This document shows, one piece after another, positions 8,460 through 59,873 of a DNA stretch of 64,000 nt; the stretch's first letter is position 1; each line of letters starts with the position of its first letter. This DNA comes from Eledone cirrhosa. Lineage: Eukaryota. Where the stretch lies: NCBI GenBank assembly GCA_964016885.1, contig OZ024757.1, forward strand, positions 22,506,001 through 22,570,000, in the 5' to 3' direction. Below the pieces are notes generated by a model. The model searched no databases. It saw only the letters and a list, made by a program, of their open reading frames with translations, and was not told where the DNA came from. The position numbers and the translations under genes are program-made.

Positions 8460-9365
8460 CCAGTGGGTCCTGTTAGAAGAAACCATTTCCAACTGATCCG
8501 GCTGGATGCCCAAGTGAGACTAACTAAGCTCATGGATGTTATCCAATCATCTTGCAAGTGGTATAACCCTGGGTCTCCTGCTAGTTGGCTTTGCCCATTA
8601 ACCCTTTAATGTTCAAACCGGCCAAAACTGGCCAGAATTCTCTACCTCTTTCTGTTGAAACTGGCTGTAACTGGTCGCTCAAACTGATGTTAAGGTACTG
8701 TTTTCAAAATAAATACTTTCGAAATCTCACAGATTCGATATTATGTGAGGTATTATGTGAGGTAAAGCCTTTACCGTGAAAATATAATAGTATATATAGA
8801 GTACTGTGAATGTTATGTGAGATATTATGTGAGGTAAAGCCTTTACCATGAAAATATAATAGTATATATAGAGTATTGTAAATGTTATGCAAGATATTAT
8901 GTGAGGTAAAGCCTTTACCATGAAAATATAATAGTATATATAGAGTACTGTGAATGTTATGTGAGATATTATGTGAGGTAAAGCCTTTACCATGAAAATA
9001 TAATAGTATATATAGAGTATTGTAAATGTTACGCGAGATATTATGTGAGGTAAAGCTTTACCATGAAAATATAATAGTATATATAGGCTAATGTAAATGT
9101 TATGTGAGATGTTATGTGAGATATTATGTGAGGTAAAGCCTTTACCATGAAAATATAATAGTATATATAGAGTATTGTAAATGTTATGCGAGATATTATG
9201 TGAGGTAAAGCCTTTACCATGAAAATACAATAGTATATATAGAGCAATGTGAATGTTACGCAAGATATTATGTGAGGTAAAGCCTTTACCATGAAAATAT
9301 AATAGTATATAGAGTAATGTGATTGCTAAAGGGTTAAATCTGTCCAGCGATTCTTTCCTGGGACA
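8460..9365 (-). mobile_element. Decayed RTE (Rex3/Expander-like) 3' fragment split by a TTAA MITE
   Basis: 8480-8597 plus 9338-9365 align with the uninterrupted homologue at 34240-34390. Confidence 0.7.
8602..9333 (+). mobile_element. piggyBac-type non-autonomous element with an internal 72-bp tandem array
   Basis: TTAA|CCCTTTA...TAAAGGG|TTAA; about 8 units of 72 bp; second copy at 31384-32322. Confidence 0.85.
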
Positions 9366-17809: not shown

Positions 17810-18714
17810 GTAAATAGAAACAAAGCAAACAATACAATAGAATGAAGAAATATATTTGTTTAACGCTTGATATAGTAGGAAATTATTCTTAATGTTTCAG
17901 ACACTGGTCTCTCATTGGAAGGTAGAATGAAAAATAAAAGAGGAAATAAAAAGATAGAAAAGGGAGAAGAGGAAGGAACAGAGAAAAAGGTTTTTAGGAA
18001 AAAACATGTGTGAATTCAATATTCAGCAATGGCTGGGCTCTCGTTCTTTGGGAACTAATATTTTCTAGAATTTCAAGATGTCTGTTGATGATTGCTTCAC
18101 CATTTGCCAATGCTAATCAATGGTAAATGCTGATGAGTTTTGCTATATGAAATGGTACAATATAGGTCTAGTAAAATATTAGTGGTTAAGTATAATACTT
18201 ATTCTGTCTCTATGATTTTTAATCTAATTAGATTGTTCTCTGCAAAATATGTGATTTTCTATGATATTGGCATGTGTGAGTTCTTAGATTTTTAACCCTA
18301 ATACTTTCATTGAACTGTCATATATATATTCTTCGTTTTTGAATTTGTTTTGCAAGATTTCTAATCTGAAAACCAACAGTTACTTTCGGATCTAGCTGTC
18401 AAAATGGCCGGAGCTCAGTCATCTGGGTGTCCTGACTATTTCCCTATATATATATATTTGATCGATTTAATTTTAATGTGGTTTGTCTACATGCAAACCG
18501 TCAAAGATTATTGAGAAATAAATACAAAAAAAAAACATATACATTTTCACCACAAAACAGTGTCATGAGTGTACACAGCATGGCTGAGTGGTTAAGAAGT
18601 TTGCTTAGCAAACATTAGAGTCCAGGTTCAATCCCTCTGCATGGAATCTTCATCAAATGTCATTTACAATAGTCTTGAATCAACCTAAGAATTATGTTAA
18701 AGGTACATATTCTA

Positions 18715-22705: not shown

Positions 22706-22909
22706 ATATATGTGTGTGTGTGTGTTCAGACCTCATCAGTGATAGACTCTGCAAGGATTAAAATCGCAAAGTGACATTGTATGTCACAACAATGCCTGTG
22801 CATGAAGATATGTTTTAAAGTGAGGAAAGACTGTGCACTGAGCCAATCCCACTCTCTGAGTGACAGTAGCTATAACCCGAAAAGAAGAAAAGATCAACAT
22901 CATTGATAA

Positions 22910-31383: not shown

Positions 31384-32322
31384 TCCCTTAGCATTTACAT
31401 TACTCTATATATACTATTATATTTTCACAGAAAAGGCTTTACCTCACATAATATCTCACATAACATTCACATTACTCTATATATACTATTATATTTTCAT
31501 GGTAAAGGCTTTACCTCACATAATATCTCTCATAACATTCACATTACTCTATATATACTATTATATTTTCATGGTAAAGGCTTTACCTCACATAATATCT
31601 CACATAACATTTACATTACTCTATATATACTATTATATTTTCATGGTAAAGGCTTTTCCTCACATAATATCTCACATAACATTCACATTACTCTATATAT
31701 ACTATTATATTTTCATGGTAAAGGCTTTACCTCACATAATATCTCACATAACATTCACATTACTCTATATATACTATTATATTTTCATGGTAAAGGCTTT
31801 ACCTCACATAATATCTCACATAACATTCACATTACTCTATATATACTATTATATTTTCATGGTAAAGGCTTTACCTCACATAATATCTCACATAACATTC
31901 ACATTACTCTATATATACTATTGTAGTTTCACAGTAAAGGCTTTACCTCACATAATATCTCACATAACATTCACATTACTCTATATATACTATTATATTT
32001 TCATAGTAAAGGCTTTACCTCACATAATATCTCACATAACATTCACATTACTCTATATATACTATTATATTTTCATAGTAAAGGCTTTACCTCACATAAT
32101 ATCTCACATAACATTCACATTACTCTATATATACTATTATATTTCCATAGTAAAGGCTTTACCTCACATAATATCTCACATAATATCGAATCTATCAGAT
32201 TTTGAAAGTATTTATTTTGAGAACAATACCTTAACATCAGTTTGAGCGACCAGTTACAGCCAGTTTCAAATGAAAGAGGCAGAGAATTCTGGCCGGTTTT
32301 GGCCGGTTTGAACATTAAAGGG
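31384..32322 (-). mobile_element. piggyBac-type non-autonomous element with about 11 x 72-bp units, inserted in a SINE-B tail
   Basis: TTAA at 31380-31383 and 32323-32326; flanks rejoin as ggggtcgatTTAAtc.actttcc (compare 26395-26420). Confidence 0.88.
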
Positions 32323-39754: not shown

Positions 39755-39789
<35 letters not shown>

Positions 39790-39795
<6 letters not shown>

Positions 39796-40122
39796 AATGC
39801 CTTGGGAGGGTCATGTTGCCAATAAGAAACACATGCACCAGTTGCTTTCACTCCAATTTATTATAAATTAAATTTATAAATTTAAGAATTTGTGATGAAA
39901 GAACTTTGACAATATATGAACAATCGTCTGGTTGTGGAACCAACCAACCAACCAGAAATTTATAAATTCTTAAATTTATAAATTTAATTTATAATAAATT
40001 GGAGTGAAAGCAACTGGTGTGTGTGTTTCTTATTGGCAACATGACCCTCCCAAAGTATAACAATATCGGTTTTAACACACGTTTTCAGATAAAGAATCTT
40101 GCTAAACAAATTCAGAAACGAA
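39790..40122 (+). mobile_element. Penelope-like terminal fragment with an inverted 5' duplication
   Basis: 39891-40122 matches 45759-45977; preceded by a ~95-bp inverted copy of its own downstream part. Confidence 0.7.
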
Positions 40123-40229
40123 ATATATATTTATATATATATTATATACACATGTTTTACTGAAATGCGAGATTGTTATGCTCGAAAATTATCAAGTTGA
40201 GGGGCTGTCAGTAATATATTAACATATAT

Positions 40230-43794: not shown

Positions 43795-44245
43795 TCATCA
43801 TCATCATCATCGTTTAACATCCATTTTCCACGCTAGCATGGGTTAGATGGGTTGTCTCGTTAGAGTCAAGTTGAGTCAATAGACTGTCTTGCTCATATAG
43901 AACTGTTTCTGGCGAGGTTTCTACAGCTGGATGCCCTTCCTAATGCCAACCATATTTACAGTGTGTACTGGGTGCTTTTTGTCGTGACTCCTACACGACT
44001 ACATTTAAAATGTGGGAGGGTGCTTTTTGTTGTGACTCCTACACGACTACATTTACAGTATGTACTGGGTGATTTTTGTTGTGACTCCTACATGACTACA
44101 TTTACAGTGTGGGTGGGTGCTTTTTGTCATGAGTCCTATATGACTACATTTAAAGTGTGGGTGGGTACTTTTTGTTTACAGTGTGAGGGTGGTGTGAACA
44201 GAAGTGGGTGGGGGTATATGGTTATGAGGTGCCTACTAGATGTAT
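43795..44245 (-). mobile_element. RTE 3' UTR relative with an expanded ~47-bp module array
   Basis: catttacagtgtg..ctgggtgctttttgt.gtgactcctacacgacta occurs 4-5 times; gaggtgcctact is shared with 61961. Confidence 0.75.
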
Positions 44246-44301
44246 GTTAGAGTCTGTGCACATGGAAAGGCATATCTTTTGTATTACTTACTGCAAAATG
44301 C

Positions 44302-44337
<36 letters not shown>

Positions 44338-45464
44338 TTTATAGTAGTAATAGTCAAATAATATATTTTATTTTTAGTATCATGGTAACTTTTGGGCCAG
44401 CCTGTGTGTGTATATATACACACACATATCTATATATATAATTGGAGAAATGACAAGACAAACACAGAGATGCCAAATCACCAAGTGATATTAGTTTCAA
44501 GCTTAGGAGAAAGTAGTGTGTATGGGCAGCACATATGAACGCCGCCGATTCCCCAGCAGCAACGCGCAAGTGTACGGGTTGGCATGGGCAGGTGTGTTTG
44601 TGTGTGAGTACAGGTGTACCCATGGCACAAATTTATGACAGGTTTTGTAAATATATTTATTCAACAATATTGGCAATTAAAATATATTTAAATGAAACAA
44701 AATGGAGAAAAAGGGGAAAAAAGAGAATGAAGCTAAGAAAGGAAGGGTGGTGTCGGGAGGGAAATGATTAGAGTTAAAGGGAGAAGGAATCTGAGCAGTT
44801 ATTCAGCCCTCCAACAGACTGAATGGTGAAAACATTACCTCAGAAAATAACAGCAATAAAATGTTTTTTCTCAATTGTCAAAAATCATGTGATACCTCTC
44901 ACTCCGACCTGTCTTAAACCGCTTACTATAACTCACTCATGGTTTTATTCTCTCACTTTCATTCTTATTTTTTTCTCCTACTACCACTCACCTTGTCATT
45001 TAACAGCCTCCTACCTCCACAATATCTCACATTTCTATGACAACAAAATGACACTCTACCACAAATTATTACTCTATGTTGAAACCTAGATTGAGCCGGC
45101 TCAAAATTAAGGTTTATTCTGTCGCGCATTAAGATTCCACGTCTAGCGAAATATGTCTTCGTTTTGTCTCACTTTAGAAATGGTTTTTATGTTTTCCCTA
45201 TGTTTTTTTTTATGTGTTTTGCACAAATAAACCTTTCAAAATAGTCGGAAATTATTTTAATTAACTTTTTAGTTAAATTGTATTCGTTCAAAACATCAAA
45301 AATCATAGGGAAAAAAATGCCACCTCCTAAACGAAACTTATAATATTCACACCCAAACTCGGGTATTCTTCTTGTCCTTCAACCCCACCGAATAAAAATA
45401 AAAAAAGCAACAATTTCCAACAGTTTTGAAAGACTATATTCGTTCAAAATATATATATATAAAC

Positions 45465-45974
45465 ATAAATGAACTCCAACCAAAATTAAATAGAAAACAT
45501 GAATGGAATAGCAACATCACAACTTACAATTAAGGACAAAATGAAAACACACACAGAACAAACAAACAAACAACCAACCAGTAACATGTAAATTAACAAA
45601 TAAATAAACAAATATAAACACACACAGACACCCAGATGTAACACATGCACAAACTAAGCACACAACACACACAAAAACAAGATGGCATAGGACAGAACAA
45701 AGGAGAGGCACAAAAACAAAGAAAAGAATCCCCAGTCACTGAAGAGGTCACAGAATGTGTGACGAAAGAACTTTGACAATATATGAACAATCGTCTGGTT
45801 GTGGAACCAACCAACCAGCCGGAAATTTATAAATTCCTAAATTTATAATAAATTGAAGTGAAAGCAACTGGTGCGTGTGTTTCTTATTGGCAACATGACC
45901 CTCCCAAAGCATAACAATATCGGTTTCAACACACGTTTTCAGATAAAGAATCTTGCTAAACAAATTCAGAAACG

Positions 45975-45977
<3 letters not shown>
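45465..45977 (+). mobile_element. Penelope-like element 3' end (ORF tail, hammerhead, pseudo-LTR-like segment)
   Basis: INELQPKLNRKHEW...stop at 45531 resembles the P.LN...E end of the PLE GIY-YIG domain; a hammerhead motif follows. Confidence 0.6.
45735..45777 (+). ncRNA. Minimal type-I hammerhead ribozyme motif
   Basis: GTCA-CTGAAGA-G-GTCACA-GAATG-TGTGAC-GAAA-GAAC-TT-TGAC. Confidence 0.7.
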
Positions 45978-46023
<46 letters not shown>

Positions 46024-46032
46024 TAAGATAAT

Positions 46033-46352
46033 TAAGTCAAATATTTAAAATTTGGCTTCGTTTATTAAAGATGTACTGCTATATATATATTGGTGACAGC
46101 CATCATTGGCTGTGACCTCTTCAGGCAGTCCGAATCATATGATTCCAGTTCCTCAGAGAAATAACAACCCAACCAGGAGCTGGACATATCGGAGTATTGA
46201 TGGAGTAAAACACTTCAACAACATGTGTACCTGTCTCTACCACACACCAATTCGGACTGCCTGAAGAGGTCACAGCTAATGATGGCTGTCACCGAAATAT
46301 ATATAGCAGTAAATCTTTAATAAAGGAAGCCAAATTTTAAATATTTGACTTA
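46033..46352. repeat. Inverted repeat with ~103-bp arms and a 114-bp loop
   Basis: 46033-46135 is the reverse complement of 46250-46352 with few mismatches. Confidence 0.93.
46256..46310 (+). ncRNA. Complete minimal type-I hammerhead ribozyme motif
   Basis: ACTGC-CTGAAGA-GGTCACAGC-TAATGATG-GCTGTCACC-GAAA-TATATA-TA-GCAGT: all three stems and both core boxes present. Confidence 0.82.
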
Positions 46353-46614
46353 CTTATTGTACATTACTCCGGAGTAACCAAACCAACCTGCGTACTTCAT
46401 CGAGTGCTCCAATCTGCATACTGAGGTGTCAGTAAACAACCAACATATACTCAAAATATATACATATATATATATAAAACATAGGAAAAACATAAATTTC
46501 AGCTCAAAAACGAAACTGTTGTAATATTCAACTCCAAACTCGAAATCTTTATGGGTCCCATCTAAAACAAACAGACAGGAACTGTATGTATGAATATATA
46601 TATATACATACATA

Positions 46615-46692
46615 CAGGGTGTCCACAAAAGATGTATATACACTTCAACAGCATTCTAATCAAAGTGTTTATACATTTTTGGGGGACATCTT
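46615..46692. mobile_element. Very small Tc1/mariner-type MITE
   Basis: TA|CAGGGTGTCCACAAAAGATGTATATACACTT...AAGTGTTTATACATTTTTGGGGGACATCTT|TA; imperfect ~30-bp TIRs. Confidence 0.6.
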
Positions 46693-47459
46693 TACAATGG
46701 AGGAAGAAAGAGACGTTTCAGTGAGAGAGGGGGAAGAGATACTATTATTTTATGTTAAACCCTTCCCCCCCCCCCCCCAACTCAGTCCTCCAAAACGAGG
46801 CAACAACTTATTAGAAATCTAAACTATAATAAAGTAAGAAGCGCGGGACTGCGTAGGGTTTGTAAGTTTTTATCCTCTTAGTAAAATAAGTTGGATTACT
46901 TTGAATAAATAATGAATGAATATTACATAATTTATCTACTAAATTTCGTAGCTGTTCATTAAATATATTTTATTACTTATTTAAAGATTCACTTCTTTAA
47001 AATTTTCCTTTGTCAACACTTCCGGTTAGTGACCGTTTAAATAAATATTCATATATTTCTGTCACTAATTTTCTCCTATTGAAGTTTATATATAATATAG
47101 TCTTTTTTTTAATGTATCATGAATTACGTTACTGATTACATAAGACAGTGTAACGCAGTCTTCGTTCAATTTCTGAGTATATTGTCAATTACGATTTTAT
47201 TTGATCATATCTACATGGATATATATGTGTGTGTGTGTCCCCGAATGTTTGCAAAGTCTATACAAATCCACATTTCTATTCCGATTGACTTCAAACTTGC
47301 ATTTATATATTCCTTGCGGTCTAAAGATATTAACTGCAGCTTTTATTTTTCACTTTTCTGTTGTTAAAGGGGTGTTAGGCGCCGGTTAGCGATCTCTCTC
47401 TCTCTCTCTTTCTTAGTCTGTCTTTTTAGATAGATACATAGCTATAACGTCGCGCCCTT

Positions 47460-48182
47460 ATAATATCTGTCTGTATGTCTGGCTGTCTGCATTACGACAT
47501 TATGAAAACATTGTTCTCATTGCTGACGTATCTTCGCTATTTTCCGTTCATTGCCAGGGACGTCTTCACGAACCAAAGAATCGTCTTCCTGTTTTTCTTC
47601 GGTTGCAACGTTTTTCGAAATACTTACTTCTACGTTCACAGATTGATTTTTTTTAGTTTCAGAAGAGTCAAGGTCAAACTTTCAAAACTATTGGTATAGA
47701 TCTGACAAACCCATGTTTCAGTCATGGCATGTTTTATGTGGCTGTTTCAAGGACTGGAACGTCAACAAAACTCTACATTTTAGCCAATCAAGAAATGTTG
47801 TTTACCCTTAAGTTCTTCATTAGGACAAAGTATGAAATATATTTTCAGATATTTATTATGTTAAAAAATAAATAATTAAACCTTGAATTTCTAATTTGAA
47901 AATAATGCTTTACACAAAAATGAAATGATCAAGTTTTGAATTGATATTTTGAAAAAAAATATTCACAAGAAATAAAATAAGAATAAGATTTAATAATGTA
48001 ATTTTGATTTGATATATTACAAAAAATAATGTTTTCCAACTTTTCATGCATTACATTTTACATTGAGTAATATTGAAATGTAGAGTTTTTCTCCCTAAAT
48101 AATATTACTGATTTAAAATCAATCATCATTTTCTTACAAAAAAAATGTGTGAAATACAGCAAGACGCGGGTAATTTGGCTAG
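47460..48182 (+). mobile_element. Helitron/Helentron-like non-autonomous element
   Basis: 5' (CTGT)-type repeats; 3' end gcaagacgcgggtaatttggCTAG|T; internal segment shared with 58900-59070. Confidence 0.5.
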
Positions 48183-48300
48183 TATATTATAAGAACAGAT
48201 TAAAGTTTAAGCAAAGAATCTCTGCTTATGAGATCTTCAGAAACTCCACATTTATTATTACGATATATATATATATAATATATATATATAATATATATAT

Positions 48301-48331
<31 letters not shown>

Positions 48332-48575
48332 ATATATATAATATACACACCCTTCCCCTGTTGTTTGCCCTGTTGTTTGCATAGTTCAAGATTAAAAAAC
48401 CCAAACATACACAAATATTTGTTTCACGCCACGCTTGTCAAAATTAATGTCAATATATATATATTGTTATTATTTATCTCTCACTATATATACGTGTATA
48501 TGTATGTATACTTGTCGATATATATATATGTATGTATACTTGTCGATATATATATATATGTATGTATACTTATCG

Positions 48576-49510: not shown

Positions 49511-50219
49511 TAAAATAATAATAAATATACTTGCTTTCAACAACTTCAATAAAGCTGTCAAGTTTTTGTTTTTTTTAGGGATTATTTCCAATAAATTATT
49601 TACAAACGTCATCTAGGAAACTACCCCTGTCTACCATTTCTTGTTGGGAAACAGGTGCCTGTCCATTTTTTTTTTTTTTTTAATCTCTGTAGTGGAATAC
49701 AAGTTTGAAATACTAAAAAGGGGCTCCGCAATGAGTTAATAAACAATGCACCATGTTTATAATTACATAACTTCATAATACGACATTTTTTTGTATTGTT
49801 ACTGTCTGCTTTTCCTGTTGATCACGTGATACCTCCTACTCCAATCTACCTCAAACCTCTTACTGCAACTCACTCATAATTGTATTCTCTCACTTTCCCT
49901 CACTCGTAATTTTTTTTTATTTTCCTACTTTTCTAAAAATAGGGTGAAATTGTTGAATTTTAATTTTAAATTTTAAAATTTAATCTTGATTTTCTCGACG
50001 TTTAAACCATTTAATAGAAATGTCACTTTTCACCATTTGTTTCTGAAAATTCTCTGAAGAATCGTTATTGCTGCCTACCATTTCTAAGGCCCCCTGAAAT
50101 GCCATGATGGACACAGTAAAACATCGACAGTAGTGCCCTAACAACTGCCTGCACCAGTTACGGGATATTAGTGGGTTGATTGATTGATTTTCGCCTGTTG
50201 TCTGTCGTTTCATATCCTA

Positions 50220-59830: not shown

Positions 59831-59873
59831 TTCAGAAGTACTTTCATGTCTTCTGGGACATTCTTCAGGTGAA
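59831..59873 (-). ncRNA. Minimal type-I hammerhead ribozyme motif
   Basis: Minus strand TTCAC-CTGAAGA-ATGTC-CCAGAA-GACAT-GAAA-GTAC-TT-CTGAA; palindromic AAGTACTT; one C-C mismatch at the base of stem I. Confidence 0.72.

Follow-up and report, generated by a model that had tools for sequence, protein, structure and literature searches.

The window, the whole stretch of 64,000 nt that was analysed, is AT-rich, repeat-dense and full of microsatellites and tandem arrays, and some of its dispersed repeats may be octopus-like. It harbours a complete minimal type-I hammerhead motif (HHR-A) within a short unit made of a direct copy of a high-copy repeat and a shorter, inverted copy of the same repeat. 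This unit is referred to as the HHR-A stub. The features discussed are the following:

39789..40122, no strand assigned: second head-to-head stub (family B); sequence comparison
45735..45777, plus strand: HHR-B, another minimal hammerhead motif, from a family other than that of HHR-A; sequence and descriptor match
45977..46025, no strand assigned: (TA)n microsatellite, left flank, also the 3' end of the neighbouring element B; sequence
46028..46135, minus strand: inverted, shorter copy (equals 46250-46357); sequence comparison
46132..46145, no strand assigned: 14-nt palindrome at the head-to-head junction; sequence and fold-back joint reads
46139..46453, plus strand: direct, 5'-truncated copy of the high-copy repeat; read and contig coverage, right boundary approximate (family coverage to 46450)
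46256..46310, plus strand: HHR-A, complete minimal type-I hammerhead motif; sequence, descriptor match and folds
46414..46453, plus strand: candidate tail of about 37-40 nt, suggested by joints at 46414
46454-46476: TA-rich run, right flank; sequence

Several other elements were noticed in the window. A C-terminal fragment of a Helitron/Pif1-type helicase is located at 47657-47875 (plus strand; best match a lobster protein, 91% over 60% of the query). The region 46612-46697 is a short hairpin element with imperfect inverted ends, which adjoins a TA/CA microsatellite and is possibly a MITE remnant. One 72-nt tandem unit forms arrays at 8741-9322 and 31392-32183, 22 kb apart and in opposite orientation, and further minisatellites have units of 27, 36, 40, 52, 65, 73, 88, 140 and 309 nt. 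No credible candidate for a host exon was found among the 144 complex reading frames of at least 62 aa in the window. The frame at 49983-50216 (minus strand), with a Pfam match to HSNSD_N at E 5e-4 (below the cut-off, and corresponding to approximately 0.07 after 144 tests), had no match among the sequences of solved structures at E <= 10 and was treated as chance.

Hammerhead motifs in the window

The core boxes CUGANGA, GAAA and NUH are all present in HHR-A in the type-I order. The 5-bp stem I is formed by 46256-46260 and 46306-46310, and between its strands lie the box CUGAAGA (46261-46267), stem II (46268-46293), the box GAAA (46294-46297) and the strand of stem III, which is a perfect 8-nt AU palindrome (46297-46304, A15.1 to U16.1). 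The 10.1/11.1 pair is G46268-C46293, so that G10.1-C11.1 is present. A17 corresponds to position 46305, and the predicted cleavage 3' of A46305, already proposed in a preliminary description of this DNA, agrees with the standard hammerhead numbering. In that description stem II was given 9 bp and one C-C mismatch; the mismatch exists, while the number of pairs is 10, including one U-G. Helix I is short and helix II long, as required for minimal type-I hammerheads of the type found in Penelope-like elements.

A loose descriptor of minimal hammerheads matched the window twice; 300 block-wise dinucleotide shuffles gave a mean of 0.003 matches per window. In its strict form, set to the quality of HHR-A, the descriptor was matched by none of the 300 shuffled windows. 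Thus HHR-A is a real motif and not a chance product, and the full minimal type-I hammerhead reported earlier at 46256-46310 is present with all its boxes and stems. The Rfam hammerhead families gave no match at E <= 10 in 44000-48500 and in 46240-46330; the minimal form is possibly not modelled there.

We compared HHR-A with the minimal hammerheads of metazoan Penelope-like elements, as characterized in the accessible text of PMC4209133 (Cervera and de la Pena 2014). Common to both are the CUGANGA and GAAA boxes, the 5-bp helix I, the long helix II, G10.1-C11.1, the palindromic 15/16 strand and the predicted action as a dimer. At the level of the locus, the many dispersed solo copies and the arrangement in opposite-strand pairs, which in that work are 100-700 bp apart, are also shared. 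On the other hand, the extra nucleotide that precedes helix II and is counted as conserved there is missing from HHR-A, its helix II contains 10 pairs with an internal C-C mismatch, its 8-nt AU palindrome exceeds the bare minimal core, and no flanked ORF was found at its locus.

The second motif, HHR-B, was absent from the preliminary description. It is located 520 nt upstream of HHR-A on the same strand and has a 4-bp stem I, an extra G before a 6-bp stem II (offset 1, compared to offset 0 in HHR-A), AGAACU as stem III, and U17. The element carrying it ends at (TA)n near 45976 and has a paralogue with 91% identity at 39885-40148. This paralogue region contains the family-B stub, 6 kb from the HHR-A locus. 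Here the start of the direct copy lies within loop II. The inverted copy (39789-39890) is without a hammerhead, ends approximately 56 nt short and overlaps the direct copy by 5 or 6 bases at the junction; both ends of the stub abut (TA)n. A 54-nt piece at 18320-18373 (minus strand) resembles the 3' end of family B.

A third hammerhead-like motif at 59831-59873 (minus strand) consists of CUGAAGA, a 5-bp stem II, GAAA and the palindrome AGUACU. It has A-U at 10.1/11.1, the base of its stem I contains a C-C mismatch, and no paralogue is present in the window; it is probably decayed. Matches to the core boxes at 22728 and 63590 were rejected as hammerheads, the rest of the motif being missing.

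The inverted repeat and its high-copy family

The arms of the inverted repeat, 46028-46135 and 46250-46357, are 108 nt long and 94.4% identical, with six differences; by another measure the repeat comprises 115 nt with 92% identity. The layout described earlier, an inverted repeat with HHR-A in its right arm, was found again, with arms longer than the 103 bp given at that time. The hammerhead copy of the left arm is devoid of G12 and A14 (two of the six arm differences), in line with the earlier statement that its GAAA box has been lost. The predicted hairpin of the two arms has an energy of -193.6 kcal/mol (z = -23), and none of 100 shuffles was equally stable.

The arms are oriented head to head, with the 14-nt palindrome at the junction, a feature not contained in the preliminary description. 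The palindrome ends with ATTC (46142-46145). These four letters are found again at 46250-46253, the point from which the inverted copy is continued, 11 nt upstream of the core (46261) of the hammerhead. To the left of the centre of the palindrome, the sequence first mirrors the initial 7 nt of the direct copy and then continues from the second ATTC, with 108 nt skipped. No readable target-site duplication is present at the stub. The direct copy contains an upstream segment, HHR-A, AATAAA at 46319-46324 and an A/C-rich 3' part. Another 14-nt palindrome (46364-46377) lies directly 3' of the right arm, and opposite-strand joints of other copies were seen at 46360 and 46369.

Paralogues were drawn from four public runs and aligned to 46136-46450 at 80% identity, which yielded 3006 contigs from X1, 27 from X5, 95 from X6 and 8241 reads from X21. 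X1 is possibly the sample of the window itself and is then not independent; X21 carries the species label of X1 and belongs to another study, and X6 carries another organism label. All 29 bins of 46136-46450 are covered in X1, X5 and X21. In X6 the 3' half of the motif has a depth (summed contig depth, not copy number) of approximately 11,700, against approximately 10 for the upstream segment. Since 2380 of the 8241 reads overrun the ends of the aligned stretch, the family extends beyond 46136-46450. The spacer and the 93 nt to the right of the right arm belong to the repeat, and thus the arms are not its ends. In the vicinity, 45166-45470 and 46476-46542 are older, approximately 76% related segments with an apparent head-to-head pair at 45256/45263. 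They may be further decayed element ends; the region may be a cluster of stubs, and family A may continue past 46453.

Among the 40 variants listed of 97, there are 38 variable places. The 29 nt that make up the core boxes together with stems I and III contain none of them (hypergeometric P 0.02 for these variants); rarer core variants may exist. Three variable places are inside the motif and all are benign: at 46277 the U-G of stem II is C-G in more than 95% of the family depth, 46280 is a change in the loop of stem II, and at 46293 the G-C pair at 10.1/11.1 is G-U in 24-44% of the family depth. A second subfamily, detected at loose ends in all four runs, has a changed N7 and one stem-II pair turned into a wobble. 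Because the core and stems I and III are without common variants and the changes in the motif are benign, the ribozyme fold is conserved at the level of the family. The preliminary description had looked to the paralogues for conserved boxes and covarying stems. The core boxes and stems are indeed kept; stem changes among the variants listed are one-sided (wobble), and two-sided covariation was not seen there.

Copies of the family are joined in variable ways. Among the 15 joints listed of 23, 11 connect opposite strands, and no two of these 11 share a pair of positions; single X1 contigs account for 7 of them and X21 reads for 4. One joint of the 15 is of the type that goes back. Six of the 11 have one side at 46136-46139, a cluster which may be due either to repeated turning at this point or to the position at which the query starts, and three use 46414. 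Further listed joints are at 46243, 46244 and 46256, near the start of the inverted copy upstream of the core. The joint of the HHR-A locus itself is not among the 15. One of the six joints with a side at 46136-46139 is a plain fold-back (46136/46142) at the junction palindrome, represented by 14 reads with 6 starts in X21. The 1543 read ends at 46249 in X21 were rejected as an end of an RNA or element; the site is AATT, and they probably correspond to a RAD restriction cut.

Relation to Penelope-like elements

The architecture of the locus is of the Penelope type in several respects. The terminal repeat that contains the hammerhead belongs to a family which is dispersed and 5'-truncated; its 5' end adjoins an inverted, truncated copy in head-to-head orientation, with a palindrome at the junction; and the insertion is at (TA)n microsatellites, as is that of the family-B stub. 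The direct copy runs approximately 95 nt past the inverted one, and the joints at 46414 suggest a tail of 37-40 nt. For Penelope-like elements, the accessible text of Arkhipova et al. 2013 (PMC3846280) describes palindromes at the junctions of inverted copies, a preference for the head-to-head orientation and a model of self-priming, that of Craig et al. 2021 (PMC8557442) describes an adjacent inverted, 5'-truncated copy and (TA)n targets, and a 30-40-bp tail of the insertions is reported in both. Thus the pseudo-LTR copies of the endonuclease-bearing elements in these two papers share with our stub the head-to-head inverted copy adjoining the 5' end, the junction palindrome, the extension at one end only, and the microsatellite target without clear duplication. 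In contrast to those elements, the stub has a total length of only approximately 425 nt and no ORF, and its inverted copy is approximately 95 nt short of the direct copy instead of 30-40 nt. Based on the layout, the palindrome and the (TA)n flanks, the Penelope-type inverted copy proposed in the preliminary description is the likely origin of the arm.

A parent element was searched for at several levels. Pfam revealed no reverse transcriptase (RT) or GIY-YIG domain tied to the family in sets of 21 and 144 frames, protein searches gave no RT- or endonuclease-encoding parent, and DNA pattern scans had 0 matches in metagenome, viral and prokaryote genome contigs. The spacer frame (stops read as X) had no Pfam or protein match and 2-nt indels are common across the family in this region; therefore the spacer is likely non-coding. 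The frame 45402-45530, considered because of its resemblance to the C-terminus of a GIY-YIG endonuclease, was rejected: it had no match at E <= 10, and a search of 1.84 billion proteins gave a single match, to a junk protein of repetitive sequence. Among the matches listed, a literature search for octopus, hammerhead and Penelope retrieved no title on such a family, for which the supplements of PMC4209133 and PMC8557442 and Repbase are possible holders. Since no RT or endonuclease is tied to the family, the repeat is likely, rather than provenly, the pseudo-LTR end of a Penelope-like element.

Taken together, the HHR-A stub is probably a decaying head-to-head end piece of a high-copy repeat, likely a Penelope-like pseudo-LTR, with an inverted arm that is likely a by-product of insertion. 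The best of the other explanations is that of a non-LTR retrozyme monomer, or another non-autonomous hammerhead repeat of approximately 300 nt, which has no coding parent and uses Penelope enzymes in trans. The size of the family piece (approximately 315 nt), its low GC content, its type-I motif and the fact that no coding sequence was found would fit, and according to the accessible part of bioRxiv 10.64898/2026.07.22.740005 retrozymes are pLTR-derived and occur as monomers. As compared with the non-LTR retrozymes of this preprint and of PMC7229834, as far as the accessible sections go, the stub is likewise a short, non-coding, pLTR-related type-I hammerhead repeat; however, it has no motif-bearing tandem array, its motif is minimal instead of canonical, and its partner is inverted instead of direct. 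In PMC7229834 the minimal palindromic motif is assigned to Penelope and Terminon and not to canonical retrozymes. Moreover, HHR-A and HHR-B share only 15 nt, only one joint of those listed goes back, and the family continues past the aligned stretch, as the overrunning reads indicate. We consider the retrozyme explanation improbable.

Folding, decay and origin of the inverted arm

The active fold of the HHR-A monomer has a predicted probability of 0.3%. The minimum-energy fold of the homodimer is exactly a double hammerhead, in which stems I are swapped and stem III has 8 bp, at a predicted energy of -37.8 kcal/mol versus -30.6 kcal/mol for two monomers. Thus, HHR-A is predicted to be nearly inactive alone and active-shaped as a homodimer, and the earlier suggestion that the palindromic stem III serves in a dimer gains support from these models. 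The predicted behaviour agrees with the accessible text of PMC4209133, where minimal motifs were inactive as monomers and gave weak cleavage as dimers, and with that of PMC11167929, where the ribozyme of a lizard element cleaved only when the element protein was present; in the latter work, RNA-seq ends were not seen at the cleavage site of the lizard ribozyme. A matching same-strand hammerhead partner for HHR-A does not exist in the window. HHR-B was rejected as a dimer partner in cis, since it has another stem-III sequence and no predicted energy gain.

When the left arm was included in the prediction, the arms paired with a probability of 1.0 and hammerhead stems I and II had a probability of 0.0, on either strand, while an RNA starting in the spacer would form stem II with 0.999 and stem I with 0.18. 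The burial of the ribozyme in read-through RNA, anticipated in the preliminary description, is what these models predict, and by the same models it follows for any head-to-head stub.

It is tempting to read this burial as an evolved cis off-switch, as was done previously. The inverted arm would then be kept in order to silence the ribozyme in read-through RNA, and RNA started in the spacer would set it free; in variants of this idea, a host transcript would be protected, or cleavage would be gated by editing or unwinding. The contrast between the two predicted folds is in line with it, and so is the location of both private left-arm changes in the GAAA box (P 0.014 if they are independent, 0.12 if they arose in one event). 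However, the pattern of decay argues otherwise. At 7 of 315 places (2.2%) the direct copy departs from the letter found in more than 90% of the family depth, none of these seven changes being A-to-G. Three of them (46277, 46312 and 46325) are arm differences at which the left arm has the majority or a common letter, and they weaken the duplex or stem II; position 46353 is polymorphic. The inverted copy has two private changes in 108 nt (1.9%). As both arms have decayed by about 2%, an intact core is expected by chance: at 2.2% decay, the 13-nt core would stay untouched with P = 0.75, that is three times in four. G12 is part of a CpG beside the TA run, a mutable spot, and a single slip or CpG decay in the left arm is therefore plausible. 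In addition, the joints change from copy to copy, the monomer by itself has hardly any predicted activity, and no host exon was credible among the 144 complex frames. Finally, the family-B sister stub is inverted without an intact hammerhead, which indicates that inversion occurs also when there is no ribozyme to silence. Thus neutral decay fits the data, and we regard the off-switch as very unlikely and the antisense arm as likely an ordinary insertion scar.

For the insertion of a Penelope-like end piece we propose the following course. The hammerhead of the parent elements would cleave the precursor RNA as a dimer formed via the AU palindrome. Reverse transcription of the 3' end of the element would have stopped approximately 120 nt upstream of the hammerhead, and the new strand would have folded back on the junction palindrome, priming its own extension. 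A jump at the 4-nt microhomology ATTC to a point 11 nt upstream of the core may have followed, after which 108 nt would have been copied in the opposite direction, and the unit would have ended up between TA-rich tracts. With no matching hammerhead on the same strand of the window, and with its predicted burial in read-through RNA, HHR-A is likely a passenger at this locus. The alternative that a hairpin DNA transposon (a MITE with terminal inverted repeats of approximately 108 bp) or a template switch at a replication fork captured a hammerhead repeat would suit the arm-spacer-arm layout between TA-rich flanks, and the palindrome and microhomology fit a switch at the DNA level too, but it is the least probable explanation, as the family spans the spacer, the right arm and 93 nt beyond and the arms are thus not termini, the joints differ from copy to copy, and a second hammerhead-bearing family of the window has a like layout.

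Read-through RNA would bury HHR-A in a 108-bp duplex, which could be edited or diced like that of any inverted repeat. By analogy, A-to-I editing of this duplex is plausible but generic. The accessible parts of PMC5625713 and PMC3681739 describe, respectively, hyper-edited Penelope repeats in lizard and inverted Penelope copies as a dsRNA source of siRNAs in Drosophila. The HHR-A stub resembles them in that a long duplex open to Dicer and ADAR is predicted to arise by read-through; it differs in being known from DNA alone and in the masking of a ribozyme, which those parts do not mention for Penelope dsRNA. One may speculate that burial, which would follow from the start of the inverted copy shortly upstream of the hammerhead, is a built-in safety catch. 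Fold-back stubs would then be able to persist in transcribed regions from which solo ribozymes are purged, and A-to-I editing of the AU-rich duplex could free the palindromic stem III and gate cleavage. We give this idea little credence; in open-access full text, we found no paper proposing that the geometry of insertion controls the toxicity of a ribozyme to host RNA.

In summary, the HHR-A locus is a real feature with a layout of an already described kind, a truncated inverted stub of Penelope type with a minimal hammerhead. It provides a clean worked example of fold-back followed by a microhomology jump, and is thus relevant to the way in which inverted copies of Penelope elements are made. 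Should it turn out that fold-back stubs are enriched over solo hammerheads in transcribed DNA, or that editing frees cleavage, the geometry of insertion would control the toxicity of the ribozyme to host RNA.
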